Source: a virus (Duplodnaviria; Caudoviricetes). From it: a stretch of DNA of 64,000 bases. The DNA is taken from positions 7,717 through 71,716 of the IMG/VR virus record IMGVR_UViG_3300037400_002076, one strand, 5' to 3'. Positions within the stretch are counted from its first letter, which is position 1. Each line of letters opens with the position of its first letter. A program made the position numbers and the translations under genes. The notes under the pieces are model-generated. The model was not told the DNA's origin. It did no database searches and saw only the letters and a list, made by a program, of their open reading frames with translations. Below are positions 29,181 to 42,735 of the stretch, piece after piece.

Positions 29181-29699
29181 TTAGTCTTGGTTCAAAACTT
29201 GTGCTTCAATCTTTTCCAATGCTTCGTCTCGCTTCTGCTTCTTGTTTACATAGTAATCTATTGCCTGTTCTAACTCACACTTATGATATGCTTTGTAACT
29301 ATACACGTCTACCTGCTGTATGCCTAAATCAAAACACAATGACCTTACTGATGAATATGATTTTCCTCTGTAGGTTATCTTTTTCTTTGACGGATTAACA
29401 GGGGTTGTTAACGCTTTTTTTGTTTCCCAACCTATCGACAGTCTTTCTTTTAATGTCGTATATGGAATACCCCAGGCGGCCGCCATGTCTTTTAGGCGTC
29501 TGTACTCAATGTTGTTATGATCCGTATATCCATTACTCTTGTATTCCTCCATAAACTCGGTCAGACCTGTTTTAGCATCCACGCCACCATGCCTGTGAGA
29601 CCACATGTACAGGATGTTTGGTAAAATGTCGTATGTATCGCAGAATGATTTGAGCGATGAAAATTCCATTCCGTCATACTTGTAAATTGTCCTTGCCAT
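29181..29699 (-). CDS. Repeat DNA-binding protein (3 NUMOD1/IENR1-like modules)
   Basis: YDGMEFSSLKSFCDTYDI / DHNNIEYRRLKDMAAAWGI / YRGKSYSSVRSLCFDLGI. Confidence 0.65.
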   Translation of the reverse strand: MARTIYKYDGMEFSSLKSFCDTYDILPNILYMWSHRHGGVDAKTGLTEFMEEYKSNGYTDHNNIEYRRLKDMAAAWGIPYTTLKERLSIGWETKKALTTPVNPSKKKITYRGKSYSSVRSLCFDLGIQQVDVYSYKAYHKCELEQAIDYYVNKKQKRDEALEKIEAQVLNQD

Positions 29700-29702
29700 G
29701 TC

Positions 29703-30509
29703 TTATACCCTCTTCTTTTTCCCTCTGTTTGTTAATTCGCCTTTCAGTTTTTTGTCTAACACAATGTCAAACGCCCATTGTCCGTCTAGGTTATGCACAA
29801 ACTGCTGATACTGTACTCGGTGATACTCTATTCCTGCTACCTGACACATCTTTTGCAGGCTAGTATATGTCTCGCCGTTGTATGTGTAGGTTTTCTTTTT
29901 GTGCGATTTTAAAAACTCACATGCCTGTACTGTATCGTATTCATATTTGTGCAAACAACTGTAAAATGTGTTAAGGTTAAAATTGTTTGCCTTGCACAAC
30001 GCTGAATATGACCTGTATTTCACACCGTTATCATCTACAATGTTGCTCTTGTATTCAGCACATTTCTTTAGGTCATAACCTCTATTCATTCTCGCCAGAT
30101 ATGTAGCATAATCGACATTGTGATACGCAGCCATTTCTTTGAATGTCTTGAATTGATTACCTAAATGATCTACCTTTTTCAGCGATGCTACCTCAATTGC
30201 CTGCTCAACACTTAATCCGTACTGCTTCTGCTTACATCGTACTGTAGCTCGTTTGATTCCGAGCTTTTCACACGCTTCCTTAATTGTCTTGTATCGAACT
30301 CCGTATACAGTTACAGGAACACATCTTGAATCAGTATGCCGTTTGTATTTTTTTGGAGGTTTGTTGACGAAATACAAGCATGTTTCCTCGCAAGTGAAAT
30401 TACGTCTGTGCTTTACTCGGATAAAGTTTTGATACGCCCAACCTCTTGCTTTGCACAATTCCTTAACGTTTGGATAACCAACACCCTGCTCGTCAAAAAC
30501 TTTAATCAT
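29703..30509 (-). CDS. Repeat DNA-binding protein (5 NUMOD1/IENR1-like modules)
   Basis: DEQGVGYPNVKELC / VYGVRYKTIKEAC / DHLGNQFKTFKEMA / DDNGVKYRSYSALC / YNGETYTSLQKMC. Confidence 0.65.
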   Translation of the reverse strand: MIKVFDEQGVGYPNVKELCKARGWAYQNFIRVKHRRNFTCEETCLYFVNKPPKKYKRHTDSRCVPVTVYGVRYKTIKEACEKLGIKRATVRCKQKQYGLSVEQAIEVASLKKVDHLGNQFKTFKEMAAYHNVDYATYLARMNRGYDLKKCAEYKSNIVDDNGVKYRSYSALCKANNFNLNTFYSCLHKYEYDTVQACEFLKSHKKKTYTYNGETYTSLQKMCQVAGIEYHRVQYQQFVHNLDGQWAFDIVLDKKLKGELTNRGKKKRV

Positions 30510-31971
30510 GATCTACCTCTAACAGATTTGCAAAGATTGCCTGTAATACGTTAACCACGATGGAATTACCTGCCATTTTATAAAGCTGTGTGTTACTGAT
30601 TCCCTTTACGCTATCAAAATCTTCGTCGTTAAATCCCATTAAACGCCAACATTCTCTAGGGGTTAATTTCCTTATTCTTAATTCTGGATTGCATTCCGTA
30701 ACCTTTAATCCGTATCGTTCAGCACGTAAGGTAGGCACAGTTTCGTCATAAATTCTAAGTTCATCACAAAACCCAAGAGTATCATCAACTATTTTAGGCT
30801 CAACAACATAATTGTCTTTGCCAACAGTTGTCAGAGTATTGCTTATTCCCTGAGTATTAACCTCTAATCTCTGTTCGGTAGGTAAACCTGTTGTTCTATC
30901 GCTAGGGTTGTCAGGATTACGACCTCTGCTTGCTGCGATGATAGGTTCAGTTATCAACGGCATACGATTACCACCCTGTGCCGTCTGTAAAGTAGGTGAT
31001 AAACCACTCGCATTGTATACGTTACCTGCCCTGGCGCCGCCTGCGTTCTCGTCATATAGATTGCCTAATCTGTCTACATGAGGTTCTTCAATTTTCTTTG
31101 GTAATTCTTCACTGCTGTTTATACCCGGTGGAACAAGCATAACCTTTGTCGGATCTTTATAATCGGTTGCGGCTAAACATCTCGATATGCCGTTTACATC
31201 AAAAACCCAACCTTTCTGACCGCCAACACCTAAATGACCTAGTGCCATGATCTTATTCTCACCACTGATGTTAGGTGAATACGTCTGCACTAAAGATTCG
31301 ATAAGTTTATCAGCACGTTCACTCTTGAGATAAAACTTCTCATCAACTTTCTGTTCTAACACGTCTTTTAATCTAATCAGTAATGGCATAGGCTGTGGAA
31401 AGAAAAAGTTATGATCGTCTACATCCTTGCGAATTGATACTATAAACACTCTTTCTCGATTCTGCGGAACGCCAAAATCTTTTGCGTTTAATATTTCAAC
31501 GTAATTGTTGTACCCGGCTTTCGATAACTCGTTTAATACTGTCATGTACTCTTTGACGAACTTCTTTGAGGTCAAAGCCTTTACATTTTCAACTATTGAA
31601 TATTTAGGTTGAACATCTTGTAATATCCTTAACCCCTCAAAGAACAATCCTGAACGTGTGCGATTTCCCTCGGAATCTTCAAAACCTTTCTGCTTTCCTG
31701 CAACGGAAATATCAGTACATGGAAATCCCCATGTCATTAAATCAATATCGTGCAGTTTAGAAGTATCGATAGTGGTTACATCTCGCAGGTTTAAATCTTC
31801 TGATACCTTGTGAATCATCGAATACGCCTTGCTTGCATACGGATCAATCTCACAATAATTCACTAATTCATAATCAACGTGCAAATTGCTTAACGCCTTT
31901 TCAAATGCACCAATTCCACTGAACAAACTTAATACTCTTAACATGTGCTTTTCCTTTAGTTTGTAAAACAT
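30502..31971 (-). CDS. DNA (cytosine-5) methyltransferase with expanded variable region
   Basis: LSLFSGIG, GFPCTD, ENV, QNRERVF, RKLTPRECWRLMGF, GNSIVV; start may be ATG 31944. Confidence 0.95.
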   Translation of the reverse strand: MFYKLKEKHMLRVLSLFSGIGAFEKALSNLHVDYELVNYCEIDPYASKAYSMIHKVSEDLNLRDVTTIDTSKLHDIDLMTWGFPCTDISVAGKQKGFEDSEGNRTRSGLFFEGLRILQDVQPKYSIVENVKALTSKKFVKEYMTVLNELSKAGYNNYVEILNAKDFGVPQNRERVFIVSIRKDVDDHNFFFPQPMPLLIRLKDVLEQKVDEKFYLKSERADKLIESLVQTYSPNISGENKIMALGHLGVGGQKGWVFDVNGISRCLAATDYKDPTKVMLVPPGINSSEELPKKIEEPHVDRLGNLYDENAGGARAGNVYNASGLSPTLQTAQGGNRMPLITEPIIAASRGRNPDNPSDRTTGLPTEQRLEVNTQGISNTLTTVGKDNYVVEPKIVDDTLGFCDELRIYDETVPTLRAERYGLKVTECNPELRIRKLTPRECWRLMGFNDEDFDSVKGISNTQLYKMAGNSIVVNVLQAIFANLLEVDHD

Positions 31972-34134: not shown

Positions 34135-34162
34135 AAAATACCCCTCATAAAGAGGGGTAAAA
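34133..34162. terminator. Terminator hairpin between ORF 33700 and the RNA cluster
   Basis: AAAAAAT-ACCCCTC-ataaa-GAGGGGT-AAAA; best U-tract on the - strand. Confidence 0.65.
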
Positions 34163-34519: not shown

Positions 34520-34563
34520 AAATAATCAAAGTACACTAACGCCCTAAAATTGTGTATTTTAAT

Positions 34564-34572
34564 ATTATAACA
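34564..34572 (-). promoter_or_regulatory. Extended -10 promoter upstream of tRNA-Thr
   Basis: TGTTATAAT on the - strand. Confidence 0.5.
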
Positions 34573-34582
34573 TGTCAATGTA

Positions 34583-34656
34583 CTTTCCAAAACGCACTCG
34601 CTGAATACGCTTTGGAAAGAAGATCTTACGGATAATCGGGGGCGGGTAAGATCTTC
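34583..34656 (-). other. Tandem long hairpins
   Basis: GAAGATCTTAC/GTAAGATCTTC (11 bp) abutting CTTTCCAAAGCG/CGTTTTGGAAAG. Confidence 0.6.
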
Positions 34657-34693
34657 GTTCCTCACTTCCATGTGATTCTAAACAAAGCGTGAT

Positions 34694-34793
34694 CCTGCAC
34701 CTACAGGAAGAACTAACACATAATTAGTATACGTGGTTCTGTATCACACGCTTTGTCAAGTTTTATTTACCCACGAACTTGATAACGTGCAGG
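34694..34793 (-). ncRNA. 100-nt four-way-junction RNA (unknown)
   Basis: CCTGCAC/GTGCAGG closes three hairpins: TCAAGTT/AACTTGA, GCGTG/CACGT, ACTAA/TTAGT. Confidence 0.5.
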
Positions 34794-34843
34794 GGCGATT
34801 AACTGGTCCGCATTGTTAAGAGGCGCATAACCGCTCTATTATT

Positions 34844-34948
34844 TGGGGTGGGGCGTACAGGAATTGAACCTGTTATTACCTCCCTCTCTTTGTACTTAAA
34901 CAAAGAGAAGATAACGGAGATGATGATAACCATTGTCACTAACGCCCC
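34844..34948 (-). ncRNA. tRNA-like RNA with a hairpin-extended anticodon arm
   Basis: GGGGCGT/ACGCCCC acceptor; GTGA/TCAT D stem; ACAGG-TTCAATT-CCTGT T arm; 34 nt between ATCTC and GAGGT instead of 7. Confidence 0.7.
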
Positions 34949-35024
34949 CTAAAATGCCCGTTGATTAGCTGGCTCAACGGAAAGCCTTGATAACTTCCAA
35001 GCAATAAGCAAGGAGTCTAGGTAA

Positions 35025-35101
35025 TGGTGGGAGCATGTGGACTCGAACCACAACTTCAAACGATGATCACCCCGTTCCATCTACCAATTGTGTATACTCC
35101 C
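35025..35101 (-). ncRNA. tRNA-like RNA with an 8-nt anticodon loop
   Basis: GGGAGTA/TGCTCCC acceptor; TGTGG-TTCGAGT-CCACA T arm; ACCA end; AACGG-GGTGATCA-TCGTT. Confidence 0.7.
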
Positions 35102-35107
35102 TTTGTT

Positions 35108-35212
35108 TGGCATCCTCAGTCGGAATCAAACCGACAACACTAGAGATTTTAAGGATATAACCTAAAAATTATAACTCATTTATAAACTCTCATGTCGCAA
35201 ATCTGCGAGGAT
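35108..35212 (-). ncRNA. tRNA-like RNA with reduced D arm and 40-nt anticodon loop
   Basis: ATCCTCG/TGAGGAT acceptor; GCCA end; GTCGG-TTTGATT-CCGAC T arm; GAGA/TCTC stem around an AT-rich insert. Confidence 0.65.
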
Positions 35213-35662: not shown

Positions 35663-35691
35663 ATTGTATCAACAATGATACTCGTTGTCAA
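35663..35691 (-). promoter_or_regulatory. Near-consensus sigma70 promoter driving the RNA cluster
   Basis: TTGACA-N17-TACAAT with extended TG. Confidence 0.75.
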
Positions 35692-35809: not shown

Positions 35810-37930
35810 TTAACAATGCTTAACTCGCTTGCTAAACTCGTCAAGTTTACCCTTGTTTACAGGTCTTGAATTAACTTCTCCGAGGTAGCCACATATGCGG
35901 CGAATTGCATGTAACTTCTGCGGATCGCTTGTTCCACACTTCGGACATACAAACTTATCATCCTTAAATTCACTTTCACCCATGAAACCACATGTGCAGG
36001 AATCAATCGGAGAATTTATCGCAAAGTATGGCACTCGGTCATAAGCGTAATCCCATAGCTGCTCAAGAGCCTGTAAATTATGTATCATGTTTGGCGTTTC
36101 CACATAAGAGATAAAACCACCACTCGCCCACTGAGGATAAGGAGACTCAAAATCAATCTTGCTGAATGGGTCTGTCTTAACTCTCACGTCAAGGTGAAAA
36201 CTGTTGGTGTAATATTCCTTATCCGTGACGTTCTTCACTATACCAAACTCTGCTCTATCCTTTTTCTCGAAAGTGTGAGATAAGGATTCGCTAGGAGTGG
36301 AATACAAACTGTAGCCCAAACCCTCGGCCTGTTTCCATTCCTTACACCTTTCTGATAAAAACCTCACAATACACTGAGCAAACTTCGCCATTTCAGCATT
36401 ATCAATTAAAGAATCATCTGAATTAAAAACCTGATGCACAGCTTCGTTTACACCTACATAACCTAAAGACACACTCGCCCTACCATCGGCAATATACGGA
36501 TAAATATAATCATCAGGTTGTAATCTCAGCAACGCACCGTATTGCCAACAGATAGGAGCTTGCTTTGCCTGCACAGTCTTTAATCTCTTTAGGCGAACCT
36601 GTAACGCTTTGTGAGCTAATTCGCAAACACGGTCAAGCTCGTACCAATATTCAACGCAACGTTCTTTTGTGGTTTTACCCTTGAGCTTTAGAGCAATACG
36701 AGGTAAATTAACGCTTACAACGCCACAGTTCCAACGTCCGTCATATACACGTTCGCCTTTTTCATTTTCCCATTCACCGAGGAACGACCTACAGCCCATT
36801 GGCGCTTTGAATCCACCTGTTACCTCAACAACTTTATCATACGATAAAATATCAGGGTACATTCGCCTTGCACTACACTCAAGTGCAAGTTGCTTTATAT
36901 CATAGTTCGGATCTTGCGGTTCAAGATTAAGCCCACGCTTTAACGCAAATACTAACTTTGGGAAAATTGCTGTCTTACGTTCAACTCCCAAGCCCTTGAT
37001 TCGTGTTTTCAGAATCCATTTCTGAATCAGCCTTGCCCATTCGCTTTCACCCAATCCAAAACCTAATGTCACGAATGGAACTTGAGCATGACTGTTGTGA
37101 GAGCAGTTGATGGAATATTCTAGCTGTTGAAACGCATCCTCACACTCTTTTTCGGTGCGTTTCATAGCAATGTTTTTAATATCTTCGGCAGTTGCATAAT
37201 CGTAATCTTCTTCGACTTCCTTACAATACTTTTCGTAAGTCTTTTCAACGTATGGTGCTAAAACCTCGTCAATACGATTTACAGTTGTACCACCATAATT
37301 CTGTGAAGATACTGCCGTGATGATTTGTGAGACAACGTTTGTTGCTACTCTGATTGACTTCGGTGTAGTGATATGAGCGGTACCCATTACAAACCCGTTT
37401 TCGAGCATATCCTTGATGTTTACAAGACAACAGTTAATGTAACCACCAGCAGGAGAAAAGCCTAAATCGTGCATGTAGATGTCACCACGAACATGAGCAT
37501 CTGCAATTTCTTTCGGCAGATAATGCGTTAACGCCCACTGTTTGCAGATTTCACTGGCAATAAAATCACGCTTTGCACAGTTTGTCTCACCGTCAATATT
37601 GGCGTTTTCATTCAGAATAGAACTATCTTGTTTTTGGTAAATGTCAGATAAGATGGCATTAACATCTCTGACATTGGCTCTATGTTCTCTGTAATGAGCG
37701 TAATTACGTAATGTGTTAGTACAGTTAGCATGACCGAGTGCAATCTCAACCATATCCTGAATACGTTCAACACTTAAATCGCCTATGCGATACTCACATT
37801 GGCACATAGCAACTACATCGTTGATTGCATCACGTACTGGTTCATCAGCGACAGATGCTTTTAGAACAGCCTGTTCTATTTTAACAGGATCAAAGTCAAC
37901 CTTTGAGCCGTCTCTTTTAATCACTTTCAT
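35810..37930 (-). CDS. nrdD: Anaerobic ribonucleoside-triphosphate reductase (class III) with ATP cone
   Basis: VIKRDGSKVDFDPVKI ATP cone; IFPKLVF; PMGCRSFL; C-terminal CPKCG and RRICGYLG glycyl-radical loop. Confidence 0.97.
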   Translation of the reverse strand: MKVIKRDGSKVDFDPVKIEQAVLKASVADEPVRDAINDVVAMCQCEYRIGDLSVERIQDMVEIALGHANCTNTLRNYAHYREHRANVRDVNAILSDIYQKQDSSILNENANIDGETNCAKRDFIASEICKQWALTHYLPKEIADAHVRGDIYMHDLGFSPAGGYINCCLVNIKDMLENGFVMGTAHITTPKSIRVATNVVSQIITAVSSQNYGGTTVNRIDEVLAPYVEKTYEKYCKEVEEDYDYATAEDIKNIAMKRTEKECEDAFQQLEYSINCSHNSHAQVPFVTLGFGLGESEWARLIQKWILKTRIKGLGVERKTAIFPKLVFALKRGLNLEPQDPNYDIKQLALECSARRMYPDILSYDKVVEVTGGFKAPMGCRSFLGEWENEKGERVYDGRWNCGVVSVNLPRIALKLKGKTTKERCVEYWYELDRVCELAHKALQVRLKRLKTVQAKQAPICWQYGALLRLQPDDYIYPYIADGRASVSLGYVGVNEAVHQVFNSDDSLIDNAEMAKFAQCIVRFLSERCKEWKQAEGLGYSLYSTPSESLSHTFEKKDRAEFGIVKNVTDKEYYTNSFHLDVRVKTDPFSKIDFESPYPQWASGGFISYVETPNMIHNLQALEQLWDYAYDRVPYFAINSPIDSCTCGFMGESEFKDDKFVCPKCGTSDPQKLHAIRRICGYLGEVNSRPVNKGKLDEFSKRVKHC

Positions 37931-39633
37931 TTCTTATCCTTATATGTAAATACATAATTACCACAATCATACACAACTAAAAACTTGTTGTTAAGCATGT
38001 TTTCACGTTCAGTCAAATTTTTGTCATAACCGTCACCTAATAGTTCAGGTAATTTGTGCTTTTGAGTTTGATAACGTGAATAAACTTCCCCATGCTTACA
38101 ATAAAAATAATTAGGCTTTGTTGTATCATTCAATTCAAAGCCTAATGCTTTATAAATATTACCCATGCTAAAACGTCTATTGGCATAACTTATTATACTA
38201 GCCCCTCGATGTTTTGTAACAAAATATTTAAAAAGTTTACTAGCACCACCTATGACAGATGTAAACTTTTTAGTACACAGTCTAATCAGTTCATAGTCAT
38301 AGTTCTTGTTAAATCTAGGTTTAGCAAAAGTCATAACCTGTATTAACTCATTGTTAAAAAACAAGCCATAATTTATAGAACTTTTTGCTTCTCCTTGAAC
38401 ATGATTCTCGTTTAAAAATTCTTTAATATCAGAATATTCCAGTTCTCTTAATTCGGTTTTTCTAGCAAAAATTCTTTGGCTTAAACCTAGTTTATTAACT
38501 ATTATACTTTTCCATATTTCAATGTTCTCATTTTCAAATATGTGTAACAACTGATAACCTTGTTCTTCACATTTGTTTGTTTTGTCTAAATGATAATTAT
38601 TTCCTTTTCCTTGTTGTTCACTATGCCAAAACAATCCGTTATACTCAATGCCTAATTTTATAGACGGAATGAGTAAGTCTATTTCTTTTGGTTTTACCAA
38701 CACTCTATCATGCTCAACCACATCGGTATATTGTTTGATAAAATCTCTTAATTCACTTTCAACCACGGTTGCGTGATTTATATTGTTTGGTTCTGTAATA
38801 CCCATAACATGCTTGTGATGTATTGCACCTGTATAGGACTTGTTAAAATATTCCATGTATTCAGTAATGTAATACACACCGTCTCTAATAAAATGTTTTC
38901 TTACAAAATCCTCGTTATAATCTTCAAAATGAGTGATGTGTTCTTGCATGTGATATATGTAATTATTGCCCTTTTTGTCTTTCCATTCTTGAGATTGACA
39001 GTAATAATCAGTTCCAAACTTTTCTCTGCAAGTTTGTCTAGCTTTTTCAAAAACCTGTCTATTACCAAAAGGACACTCGCACCCATATTTATCTAAACAT
39101 GCTTGTTTTGCTTTTTCTTTTACTTCTGGTAAGCAAAACACGTTCTTCACACCGTATCGGTCTTTTGTGGTTTTTTTAATTTTCTCAACATGTTCTTTAG
39201 TGGGTGTATATTTATGCCCATGAATTTGAAAATAAGTAAGAACAATTTTATGTGGCTTGTTTTTTTTGGTTTCTGCTGTTTTAATCGTACGTTTTTTAAT
39301 ACTGGTTATATTTCTGCATGAACATTCTTTGCAACAATTTTTACTGATATGGGGAGTTAGTTCTCCACACACAGGACATGGATGCAAATTGTCAGTAAAA
39401 TAATCAACCAAAAAAGCATTTCTGAAATCTTTTTGCATACTTAAAAAACGAGATTCCATCGTCCATACAACACCATATTCTTTTTCTAATATGTTTAAGA
39501 TATACGCTTTTTTAACTGTATGTTTTAATATTTCTCTGATTGCAGAATAATCATCTACACCTTGATTTCGCAATTCAACAAACATGTTTAATATTTTCGC
39601 AACATGTTTTTCGCTCGAACTTGGCATTGTCAT
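37927..39633 (-). CDS. Hef-like free-standing endonuclease, paralog 2
   Basis: CPVCGE..CCKEC; TTKDRYG/ACLDKYG/TCREKFG repeats; EIDLLIPSIKLGIEYNGLFWHS; same C-terminal domain as 7079..8902; stop overlaps the nrdD start. Confidence 0.7.
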   Translation of the reverse strand: MTMPSSSEKHVAKILNMFVELRNQGVDDYSAIREILKHTVKKAYILNILEKEYGVVWTMESRFLSMQKDFRNAFLVDYFTDNLHPCPVCGELTPHISKNCCKECSCRNITSIKKRTIKTAETKKNKPHKIVLTYFQIHGHKYTPTKEHVEKIKKTTKDRYGVKNVFCLPEVKEKAKQACLDKYGCECPFGNRQVFEKARQTCREKFGTDYYCQSQEWKDKKGNNYIYHMQEHITHFEDYNEDFVRKHFIRDGVYYITEYMEYFNKSYTGAIHHKHVMGITEPNNINHATVVESELRDFIKQYTDVVEHDRVLVKPKEIDLLIPSIKLGIEYNGLFWHSEQQGKGNNYHLDKTNKCEEQGYQLLHIFENENIEIWKSIIVNKLGLSQRIFARKTELRELEYSDIKEFLNENHVQGEAKSSINYGLFFNNELIQVMTFAKPRFNKNYDYELIRLCTKKFTSVIGGASKLFKYFVTKHRGASIISYANRRFSMGNIYKALGFELNDTTKPNYFYCKHGEVYSRYQTQKHKLPELLGDGYDKNLTERENMLNNKFLVVYDCGNYVFTYKDKK

Positions 39634-40504: not shown

Positions 40505-40660
40505 CTACAAATTCTGTTTCATCCGTAACTGTTTCTTTTGTATCTCGTAAAAAACTTGTGGATCACTCGGTATCTCACACAATCGCTTTCCATTTATTGC
40601 ATTTATAAGGTTTTTCTCGTTCTCTATTCCATCATTAGTGCCTAGAACTTTCTCACTCAT
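40505..40660 (-). pseudogene. 51-aa ORF coupled to the methyltransferase stop; possible truncated restriction endonuclease
   Basis: ATG overlaps the MTase stop (ATGAGTGA); MSEKVLGTNDGIENEKNLINAINGKRLCEIP...; identity is inference. Confidence 0.35.
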
Positions 40661-41630
40661 CTAAAACCTCAACCATCCTTTTTGCCAATTCACTAATAAC
40701 TGACACAACAACACTGTTGCCTATCTGTTTATATGAATGCATAGAATTTTTCTCGATAACATACCATTCAGGAAATCCCATCAATCGTAAGCATTCTTTT
40801 TCAGTAAGTTTTCTCATTTGCTCAACAACAACAGGAACATTATTCCCTCCTGTACCCATCTTTGCTGTTAAACATTGTGAAATACCATCACACCTAAAAT
40901 TGCATCTTGATGGTCTTATTTCATTTGCTAATAAAGTATTAGTCGTATCATATCTCTTTGTATTTTTGAAATCCCCAAAGAATGCCAATATGTTCTGCTT
41001 ACAAGTATCTGTAACAGCATATTCGCTAGATACATTCGTATCTATTATGTCTTTAACCTTGACAAATAATTCTTTCGGCTGTGGAAATGCATAAATTTTT
41101 TTATATTTGCCATCTTGACCATCAAAGCCAATTTTCAAATTATTTCTAAAACCAACACAGTACCACCTTTTTCTGTTTTGTGGCACACCATAATCAGATG
41201 CATTCATTACTTTCCATTGGAAATTATAACCTAGCCCTTTCAAAGTATCTTCAATAACACTAATAGTCTTGCCACCATCATGATTTACAATTCCCTCAAC
41301 ATTTTCTAAAAAGAAGGCTTTTGGTTTTCTTGCCTTTATAAGCCTTGCTACTTCAAAAAATAGAGTTCCCCTTGTATCCTCAAATCCCTTACGCAATCCA
41401 CCTAATGAGAACGGCTGGCAAGGAAATCCAGCGGCTATAATATCGAACTCAGGCAAGTCTTTTGGTTTAATCAAAGTAATATCACCCAACGGCATTTCAT
41501 TAAAGTTTTTAAAATATGTATCACACGCATATTTATCAATTTCTGAACTCATCACGCACTTAACCCCATTGCTCTCAAAGGCTATTCTTATTCCACCTAT
41601 GCCAGCAAATAGGTCAATCATTTTAAGCAT
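40653..41630 (-). CDS. DNA (cytosine-5) methyltransferase (second of a tandem pair)
   Basis: IDLFAGIGG, GFPCQPFS, ENV, QNRKRWY, TRD CLTAKMGTGGNNVP, GNSVVV; GGAG RBS before ATG 41630. Confidence 0.95.
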   Translation of the reverse strand: MLKMIDLFAGIGGIRIAFESNGVKCVMSSEIDKYACDTYFKNFNEMPLGDITLIKPKDLPEFDIIAAGFPCQPFSLGGLRKGFEDTRGTLFFEVARLIKARKPKAFFLENVEGIVNHDGGKTISVIEDTLKGLGYNFQWKVMNASDYGVPQNRKRWYCVGFRNNLKIGFDGQDGKYKKIYAFPQPKELFVKVKDIIDTNVSSEYAVTDTCKQNILAFFGDFKNTKRYDTTNTLLANEIRPSRCNFRCDGISQCLTAKMGTGGNNVPVVVEQMRKLTEKECLRLMGFPEWYVIEKNSMHSYKQIGNSVVVSVISELAKRMVEVLDE

Positions 41631-41643
41631 AATAGTCACTCCA

Positions 41644-42735
41644 TCATTTTTCACAACTAATATATTGGCTCTCCAGATAATTCAAAATACCTGTGATAAC
41701 AGGTGGACTAACAGCATTCCCAGATTGTTTATACATTTGTGCCATACTCATTCCAATATTTCTAATTTTCTCAACGAATTTAGGATCAAATCCTTGAATA
41801 TAAAAATTTTCAATAGCTGTCACTTTTCTAATCTTTTTAGTACCACCATCATCAACCAATATCTTTGTTGTATCTGCTCTTGCTAATACAGTTGGCGAGA
41901 TACCTTTGGTAGAATAAACCCTTCTTTGCCTTTCAAGATCGTTGTGAACATCTCGTGGCAAATCAAATAATTTTATTATTCTACTTTCCTTTTTAGCACT
42001 ATCCAAAATATCTAATGCACTTAAATAATTTCTGATTTTATCAGTATCAAAATAGAATGAAGCATCTACATTAGTTTCAAGAATATCCTCTATGTACTTC
42101 TTTTTATTCTTGAATACAACATGATTAAAAAAGTTAAACCCCTTAAAATCGGTATCATTAAACTTTTTCTTTAATGCATTAACTTTTGTACTTCTAATAT
42201 CATCCTCATATTTTTCTGCTAACAATCCATATATGCCCAAAATATAGGTTCTGTCTCTATTCTGTGGTACTCCAGCTTCACATGAATTTATTACAGTAAA
42301 ATCAACTGTATAGCCTATATCATTCAATGTTTTTAAGATTTTTCTTATAGTCTCGGTTTTGTCATGACTTATAAGATTTTTAACATTTTCAAGCAATATA
42401 TATCTTGGTTTCTTTTCATTAAGAATTCTTGCAACATCAAAAAACAATGTACCTCTAGTATCTTCAAATCCCTTTTGTTTTCCAGCAATACTAAACGATT
42501 GACAAGGAAACCCCGCCAATAATAAATCATGTGTTGGAACATCCTTTTCATTTACCTTTGTAATGTCGCCCTCAAAATTTTCACCACCCCAATTTGCAAT
42601 ATATGATTTTCTTGCATTTTCATCAATTTCAGATGCAAACACAACTTTACCTTTTATCTTTGATTTTTTAAGACCAACTTCAAAGCCACCAATTCCAGAA
42701 AATAAGGAGACAACTTTTATGTTATCTTTACTCAT
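41644..42735 (-). CDS. DNA (cytosine-5) methyltransferase (first of a tandem pair)
   Basis: VSLFSGIGG, GFPCQSFS, ENVKNL, QNRDRTY, GISPTVLAR, GNAVSPP. Confidence 0.95.
   Translation of the reverse strand: MSKDNIKVVSLFSGIGGFEVGLKKSKIKGKVVFASEIDENARKSYIANWGGENFEGDITKVNEKDVPTHDLLLAGFPCQSFSIAGKQKGFEDTRGTLFFDVARILNEKKPRYILLENVKNLISHDKTETIRKILKTLNDIGYTVDFTVINSCEAGVPQNRDRTYILGIYGLLAEKYEDDIRSTKVNALKKKFNDTDFKGFNFFNHVVFKNKKKYIEDILETNVDASFYFDTDKIRNYLSALDILDSAKKESRIIKLFDLPRDVHNDLERQRRVYSTKGISPTVLARADTTKILVDDGGTKKIRKVTAIENFYIQGFDPKFVEKIRNIGMSMAQMYKQSGNAVSPPVITGILNYLESQYISCEK

Follow-up and report, generated by a model that had tools for sequence, protein, structure and literature searches.

The window, by which we mean the whole stretch of 64,000 nucleotides analysed here, is part of a 71.7-kb IMG/VR phage record with an estimated completeness of 75%. 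It encodes tail proteins, a DNA polymerase, NrdD, a primase, a helicase, HNH and homing endonucleases and three C5-methyltransferases, together with an NrdG-like radical SAM protein, a thymidylate synthase, a DHFR and a DNA polymerase III beta clamp. The clamp is a bacterial-type sliding clamp, which points to a bacterial host. A 568-aa homing-endonuclease-like ORF (phrog_3339; 37927-39633, minus strand) ends 4 nt inside the start of nrdD (35810-37930, minus strand), and more HNH-like ORFs lie at 29181-30509. The DNA methyltransferase genes all belong to phrog_116 (30502-31971, 40653-41654 and 41644-42735, minus strand); two of them form a tandem pair and one, at 489 aa, is enlarged.

The tRNA-shaped element sits within a 1.5-kb stretch without ORFs that forms an RNA operon, where tRNA-Gln, tRNA-Thr and a tRNA with the anticodon CAT are encoded on the same strand. 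The features of the operon and of the element, with numbers such as L014 designating individual loci, are:

35663-35691, minus strand: candidate sigma-70-type promoter, TTGACA-17-TACAAT with an upstream TG, 11/12 matches, a consensus match only
34949-35024, minus strand: conserved spacer of about 75 nt with the hairpin CCGTTGA...TCAACGG at 34958-34980, accompanying the element in 9/10 variants
34844-34948, minus strand: whole tRNA-shaped RNA gene, recognized by its fold and by covariance model R1 (126.8 bits on the minus strand)
34942-34948, minus strand: acceptor 5' strand GGGGCGT, partner of 34850-34856; C5U in L014 keeps a G.U pair
34923-34939, minus strand: D arm GTGA / CAATGGTTA / TCAT with G18 G19 and C14; four invariant pairs, like the D arm of the same phage group's tRNA(CAT)
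34916-34921, minus strand: 5' strand AUCUCC of the lower (anticodon-type) stem, corresponding to the first copy of a 9-nt tandem repeat
34910-34915, minus strand: 5' bulge GUUAUC (GUCAUC in L008 and L014), where the second repeat copy begins; possible relic of U33-(U/C)AU
34884-34909, minus strand: pyrimidine/purine hairpin of 10 bp with the 6-nt loop UUAAGU; its tip differs in length and sequence among relatives
34878-34883, minus strand: 3' strand GGAGGU of the lower stem; G42A in L004 and L005 turns U.G into U-A
34857-34873, minus strand: T arm ACAGG-TTCAATT-CCTGT; its invariance across loci is a product of the search pattern and no evidence of constraint
34850-34856, minus strand: acceptor 3' strand ACGCCCC, from sequence and fold
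34844-34849, minus strand: discriminator A followed by CCCCA; ACCA or GCCA in relatives
34139-34159, minus strand: strong intrinsic terminator at the operon end, an 8-bp stem followed by a T run

The element is read on the minus strand from 34948 to 34844 (105 nt, with G1 at 34948) and is present once in the contig. Its acceptor stem, GGGGCGT/ACGCCCC, comprises 7 bp including a G3-C70 pair, and is followed by U8 and A9. The D stem, GTGA/TCAT, has four pairs, with G10.U25 as a wobble. G18 and G19 are present in the D loop, CAATGGTTA, while position 14 is C in place of the near-universal tRNA base A. A variable loop, AATA, precedes the T arm, and exactly 34 nt separate ATCTC from GAGGT. The preliminary description of this locus had reported this acceptor, D stem and T arm, the 34-nt insert and the 3' end A-CCCCA, and all of these are borne out by the sequence and by ViennaRNA folding.

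The cloverleaf is both the minimum free energy (MFE) structure and the centroid in ViennaRNA. The MFE is -38.9 kcal/mol, compared with -22.1 +/- 3.1 for shuffled sequences (z -5.46), and none of 200 shuffles folded as well. In the MFE structure, the lower stem spans 6 bp (AUCUCC/GGAGGU; 5 bp if counted as ATCTC/GAGGT) and leads through a 6-nt 5' bulge, GUUAUC, into the 10-bp hairpin closed by UUAAGU. An imperfect 9-nt tandem copy comes after the 5' strand of the lower stem (ATCATCTCC and next GTTATCTCC), and either copy can pair with GGAGGT. Pairing of copy 1 yields the tRNA-like fold with the 5' bulge, the register predicted to dominate in the window, L003, L009, L010 and L008. Pairing of copy 2 yields a single long hairpin with a linker of 9-10 nt after the D arm, and is predicted to dominate in L002, L004 and L012. 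The second copy is missing in L005. This 9-nt tandem duplicate with its two predicted pairing registers is a new anatomical point. Because the predicted register differs between variants, the geometry of the arm relative to the body does not appear to be conserved, which would be incompatible with decoding but compatible with a role that needs only the acceptor, T and D arms, the 'top half' of a tRNA.

The element escaped detection by ARAGORN and gave no Rfam match at gathering score; in E-value mode, the sole Rfam match was tRNA-Sec (19.1 bits, E 1.4). Compared with the canonical tRNA (RF00005), it has the 7-bp acceptor stem, the discriminator and a CCA-type 3' end (A-CCCCA in the window, ACCA or GCCA in relatives), as well as a T arm of 5 bp with a 7-nt loop of the form TTCRANY and the D-loop G18 G19; position 14 is C, not A. 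A 5-bp stem with a 7-nt loop carrying U33 and an anticodon is absent from all 10 variants, where 26-38 nt are found instead.

Several other assignments were considered and rejected. The element is not a tmRNA because it lacks G3.U70, as the preliminary description had stated, and carries G3-C70; ARAGORN also finds no tmRNA. A group I intron would need a P1-P9 core and a length of at least some 200 nt, and the insert of 26-38 nt has no Rfam intron match. When introns were allowed, ARAGORN produced a forced tRNA-Leu(tag) along with artefacts fusing adjacent tRNAs, which we did not accept as evidence. The forced call arose for one variant only in the batch run (loci L004, L007 and L013), and a separate run on the window gave the same result. 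The hairpin tip does not qualify as an anticodon loop (TTGTTAA, Asn-like, in six variants), as it has no flanking stem pairs and is not conserved. Nor can the hairpin be the long variable arm of a class II tRNA, since no anticodon arm precedes it. Finally, GGAGGT was considered as the ribosome-binding site of a small ORF and discarded, as no start codon follows it.

Homologs were found by exact or degenerate pattern scans of viral and metagenome contigs. The relatives comprise 13 loci with 10 distinct variants, all from a small group of related phages on Ga03265xx metagenome contigs; the scans otherwise yielded one unrelated tRNA-Phe (L006). The same kind of scan applied to genome contigs returned nothing, so that neither a copy in a host or prophage nor a normal-loop ancestor was found. 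A blastn search of GenBank phages gave matches only to the flanking tRNA-Gln and tRNA-Thr, and a literature search found no account of the element family, nor of phage tRNA genes with short introns. On the minus strand, the covariance model scored the loci at 108-127 bits, with 78.4 bits for the most divergent, L005; plus-strand scores were about 15-26 bits. The model found one copy per record and no copy in G002, a genome obtained through NrdD-chosen relatives (closest NrdD, 79% identity; record 88% complete). The occurrence of the same gene in 13 loci, together with minus-strand scores far above those of the plus strand, indicates that the fold is not a chance one.

Among the 10 variants, the insert measures 26, 29, 33, 34, 37 or 38 nt, and a 7-nt loop occurs in none. 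All ten variants carry the insert; normal-loop homologs beside an insert unique to the window were not encountered. The hairpin tip is hypervariable in both length and sequence. The bulge CGTTATC, in contrast, is kept in nine variants with a single T/C polymorphism and is deleted in L005. Every relative encodes ACCA or GCCA (nine relatives, NCCA), so the CCCCA tail, confirmed for the window, is private to its contig, in which a mosaic breakpoint falls inside the CCA.

The element is found in no fewer than five distinct array contexts, and breakpoints coincide with the borders of the module. The mosaic breakpoints in these arrays lie right at the CCA ends of tRNA genes. Between the element and tRNA-Thr, the window contains about 320 nt of non-coding sequence (34520-34843, minus strand) without counterpart, and relatives have tRNA-Ser or tRNA-Leu there. 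The upstream spacer is missing in L014, where the element directly abuts tRNA-Tyr at a distance of 3 nt. We considered the spacer (34949-35024) as a promoter and rejected it, as no promoter or terminator match was reported within it.

Other tRNA-like sequences are found in the same arrays. A 77-nt sequence at 35025-35101 (minus strand) combines a good acceptor stem, a T arm and ACCA, and lacks a usable anticodon arm. Its fold has a z of -0.2, ARAGORN does not call the sequence, and its slot is occupied by a normal 85-nt tRNA-Tyr(GTA) in L002, L003, L004 and L014. A second tRNA-like element of about 105 nt lies at 35108-35212 (minus strand; fold z -2.8), with an AT-rich segment of about 40 nt in its anticodon arm that ends in CUUAAAA beside the 3' stem strand. 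An exact 24-mer scan of viral contigs found no relatives of this sequence. In L002 (1900-2040) and L003 (2195-2340), a tRNA-Phe-like sequence with a GAA triplet in a loop-like context lies between tRNA-Gln and tRNA-Tyr. With its broken acceptor stem and no ARAGORN call, it appears to be a further decayed tRNA.

The nearest paralog of the element in these phages is of the tRNA(CAT) type, with which it has in common the unusual D arm GTGA...TCAT. The bulge reads G-U-(U/C)-A-U, plausibly a relic of U33-CAU. From the shared D arm and this putative relic we infer descent from a tRNA(CAU/UAU) gene. The most likely origin would be a tRNA(CAU) type of the cluster, with a hairpin inserted 3' of the anticodon and a 9-nt tandem duplication.

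A closed hairpin and a bulge replace the anticodon loop, and the hairpin is free to vary in length and at its tip; the RNA therefore cannot read codons. The statement in the preliminary description that the element cannot decode is thus well supported, with 26-38 nt in the place of a 7-nt loop in 10/10 variants and no excision scheme that restores a canonical loop across the family. We conclude, with a probability of about 90%, that the element is a tRNA-derived, non-decoding RNA gene.

Whether such a gene is under selection was assessed from the variation among loci. The T arm and the 3' acceptor strand belong to the search pattern, so their invariance carries no weight, and both were left out of the variability counts, as was L005. 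In the remaining body, 4 of 44 columns are variable, compared with 16 of 38 in the insert (Fisher p = 0.0007). The adjacent spacer has 18 variable columns of 75 (24%), a marginal difference from the body (p = 0.05). All three stem-internal substitutions, C5U, C29U and G42A, keep pairing through G.U or U-A, and do so on the minus strand only. L003 encodes an NrdD protein 74% identical to that of the window; its copy of the element has 96% identity to the window's, its tRNA-Gln 74% and its spacer 84%. This variability pattern speaks for constraint acting on the body of the tRNA. Much of the low variability would also be accounted for if the module had spread laterally in recent times: divergent phages are nearly identical even in the insert, which is supposedly free to vary (32/34 positions identical between the window and L003), so that lateral spread fits as well as selection.

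The main alternative is that the element is an inert pseudogene, a gene of the tRNA(CAU/UAU) type inactivated by the insertion of a hairpin into the anticodon arm and by the 9-nt duplication. Its apparent conservation would then reflect recent spread among close phages, and excision from a transcript could occur without any effect. The high identity of the insert noted above, nearly that of the body, fits this account. So does the lack of covariation: the preliminary description had looked to homologs for it, and no two-sided compensatory change exists anywhere in the 10 variants, which we attribute to the shallowness of the family. Indels at the tip, the 9-nt indel and inconsistent pairing registers are all tolerated, and G002 has no copy of the gene. 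The CCCCA tail of the window is damaged, and the terminal 1-72 pair of L010 is mismatched. The neighbouring tRNA-like relics, such as that at 35025-35101, indicate that tRNA genes do decay in these arrays. Against inertness, variation in the body is significantly lower than in the insert and marginally lower than in the adjacent spacer, and substitutions within stems have consistently preserved pairing. The element has also been retained with an encoded CCA in several array contexts and is better conserved than a genuine tRNA-Gln. Weighing these points, we regard a pseudogene as a serious rival, though a less probable one. If correct, it would show how tRNA genes decay in phage arrays under the appearance of conservation.

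We also considered that the element might be a tRNA gene with a short intron. Removal of the hairpin and joining of the halves would give a decoding tRNA whose loop, GU(U/C)AUAG, has UAU or CAU as anticodon (Ile/Met type) and sits on an anticodon stem of 6 bp. We enumerated all single excisions that would place U33 and R37 in a 7-nt loop on a 5-bp stem. One scheme yields U33, UAU or CAU, and A37 in 9/10 variants; moreover, the sole polymorphism of the bulge coincides with the would-be wobble base, and the D arm resembles that of the cluster's tRNA(CAT). With the canonical one-nucleotide linker after the D stem, however, no variant gives a loop with U33 and R37. The working scheme requires a shifted stem (TCTCC/GGAGG), and with it a 6-bp stem or a 2-nt linker, and G32. 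It gives no loop in L005, which is without the would-be anticodon, and some U33/R37 solution is expected by chance among the few stems tried.

The structure and the gene content likewise speak against splicing. The preliminary description had noted the lack of a bulge-helix-bulge, and this is confirmed: there is a single 5' bulge, and a 3' cut would fall inside a continuous helix. A group I intron would be far longer than the insert. Neither the tRNA splicing endonuclease (tRNA_int_endo, PF01974) nor RtcB (PF01139) is encoded in the record studied here (G000) or in the complete 95-kb relative G001, a comparison covering phage genomes only, and the only ligase found is a DNA ligase. The host, judged from the pol III beta clamp, is bacterial. 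Taken together, we consider a short-intron tRNA improbable. Quite improbable, too, is its more specific form, in which the hairpin would represent a new kind of short intron, without a bulge-helix-bulge, in a tRNA gene of a bacterial phage, its removal giving a UAU/CAU decoding tRNA with a 6-bp anticodon stem. Were this the case, the supply of an AUA/AUG-reading tRNA would depend on RNA cutting and joining during infection.

The least likely explanation is a DNA-level feature with the RNA fold as a leftover, whether a target of recombination or of a homing endonuclease or the relic of an attachment site; mosaic breakpoints exactly at module ends and nearby homing and HNH endonuclease genes fit such a feature, but nothing about a DNA site calls for a whole cloverleaf on the strand of the operon, with G.U pairs specific to that strand and a CCA that is encoded, and attachment-site relics do not look like a full-length tRNA shape.

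Returning to the tRNA-derived, non-decoding RNA gene, its predicted expression can be outlined as follows. The element would be transcribed from the minus strand with the phage tRNA operon, from the promoter at 35691-35663 to the terminator at 34159-34139. Host tRNA enzymes probably excise it, since it still has an acceptor stem of 7 bp, a T arm, GG in the D loop and a tail of the CCA type. RNase P would cut at the 5' end and the 3' end would be produced by trimming or CCA repair, giving a stable, L-shaped RNA of about 100 nt. The tRNA elbow proposed in the preliminary description is consistent with the invariant D-loop GG and the T-loop TTCAA, as far as can be read from the sequence. Our best guess is a role that needs only the top half of the tRNA. 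The RNA might act as a processing or stability module within the polycistronic transcript; alternatively, it might compete as a decoy for a factor that binds the acceptor, T arm or elbow of tRNAs. Three features speak against a fixed identity for aminoacylation: the discriminator is A in some copies and G in others, G3.U70 is absent, and there is no long variable arm.

The evidence that the element has a function is moderate. For a mimic with a selected function, as the preliminary description had it, the lower variability of the body relative to insert and spacer counts in favour, and the lack of covariation and the absence of the gene from G002 count against. The cloverleaf fold, the position between promoter and terminator beside true tRNAs, the persistence in several array contexts and the precedent of T4 rnaC also count in favour. 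On balance, we lean slightly towards a selected, processed and functional RNA. If it is functional, phages would use the tRNA shape beyond decoding, for transcript processing, RNA stabilisation or competition for host factors that bind tRNAs, and the element family would offer a simple model for finding out which.

Several known systems share parts of this architecture. Bacillus cereus tRNA-Other and irregular allo-tRNA-like RNAs are bacterial tRNA-like small RNAs with suspected non-translational roles (PMC5389517). These RNAs retain an anticodon loop, which the element lacks, and the likeness is one of description. YrlA and the bacterial Y RNAs, partners of Ro60/Rsr, combine a tRNA-like body with a long helix, and Y RNAs occur in some phages too (PMC7824862). 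Y RNAs end in a long stem with a closed 'acceptor', whereas the element ends at its acceptor stem; because of this opposite topology and the absence of a TROVE/Ro60 gene from G000 and G001, we rejected an assignment to YrlA or the Y RNAs. In the t-elements of plant mitochondria and the tRNA punctuation model, tRNA-shaped, non-decoding elements attract RNase P or RNase Z, which then cleave a long transcript. The present element differs in that it is flanked by true tRNAs that could supply cleavage sites, and its processing is only predicted.

Chimeric RNAs built on tRNA scaffolds are processed like tRNAs and are stable in bacteria. Engineered scaffolds, in which a foreign RNA takes the place of the anticodon loop (PMC3753655), have the same architecture as the element, with an intact acceptor/D/T body and a foreign hairpin closing the anticodon stem. 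The scaffolds are man-made, whereas the element has no evident cargo function and the tip of its hairpin is unconserved.

The closest counterparts are found in phage T4. Phage tRNA clusters have long been known for small stable RNAs, such as T4 species 1 and 2, and by annotation T4 species 1 RNA (rnaC) and species 2 RNA (rnaD) are, like the element, non-tRNA RNA genes in a phage tRNA cluster. A blastn search of GenBank phages found no sequence similarity between the element and rnaC or rnaD. The expression of the T4 RNAs has been shown, while the present element is known from sequence; to our knowledge, no function has been described for either T4 RNA. The fold of rnaC (L021, 2909-3047, minus strand) has a z of -4.6 and places a canonical T arm, CCGGG-UUCGAAU-CCCGG, beside a stem that joins the 5' and 3' ends. 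The element agrees with rnaC in being a non-decoding RNA gene within a phage tRNA operon, with a T arm and with its two ends paired in a stem. In rnaC, of 139 nt, two long hairpins replace the D and anticodon arms, whereas the element keeps the full cloverleaf with the anticodon loop alone altered. The element is a real tRNA-derived, non-decoding RNA gene that joins a known but unexplained kind, and a clean example of the small RNAs of phage tRNA clusters, with a complete tRNA body and a sealed anticodon arm as its only radical change.
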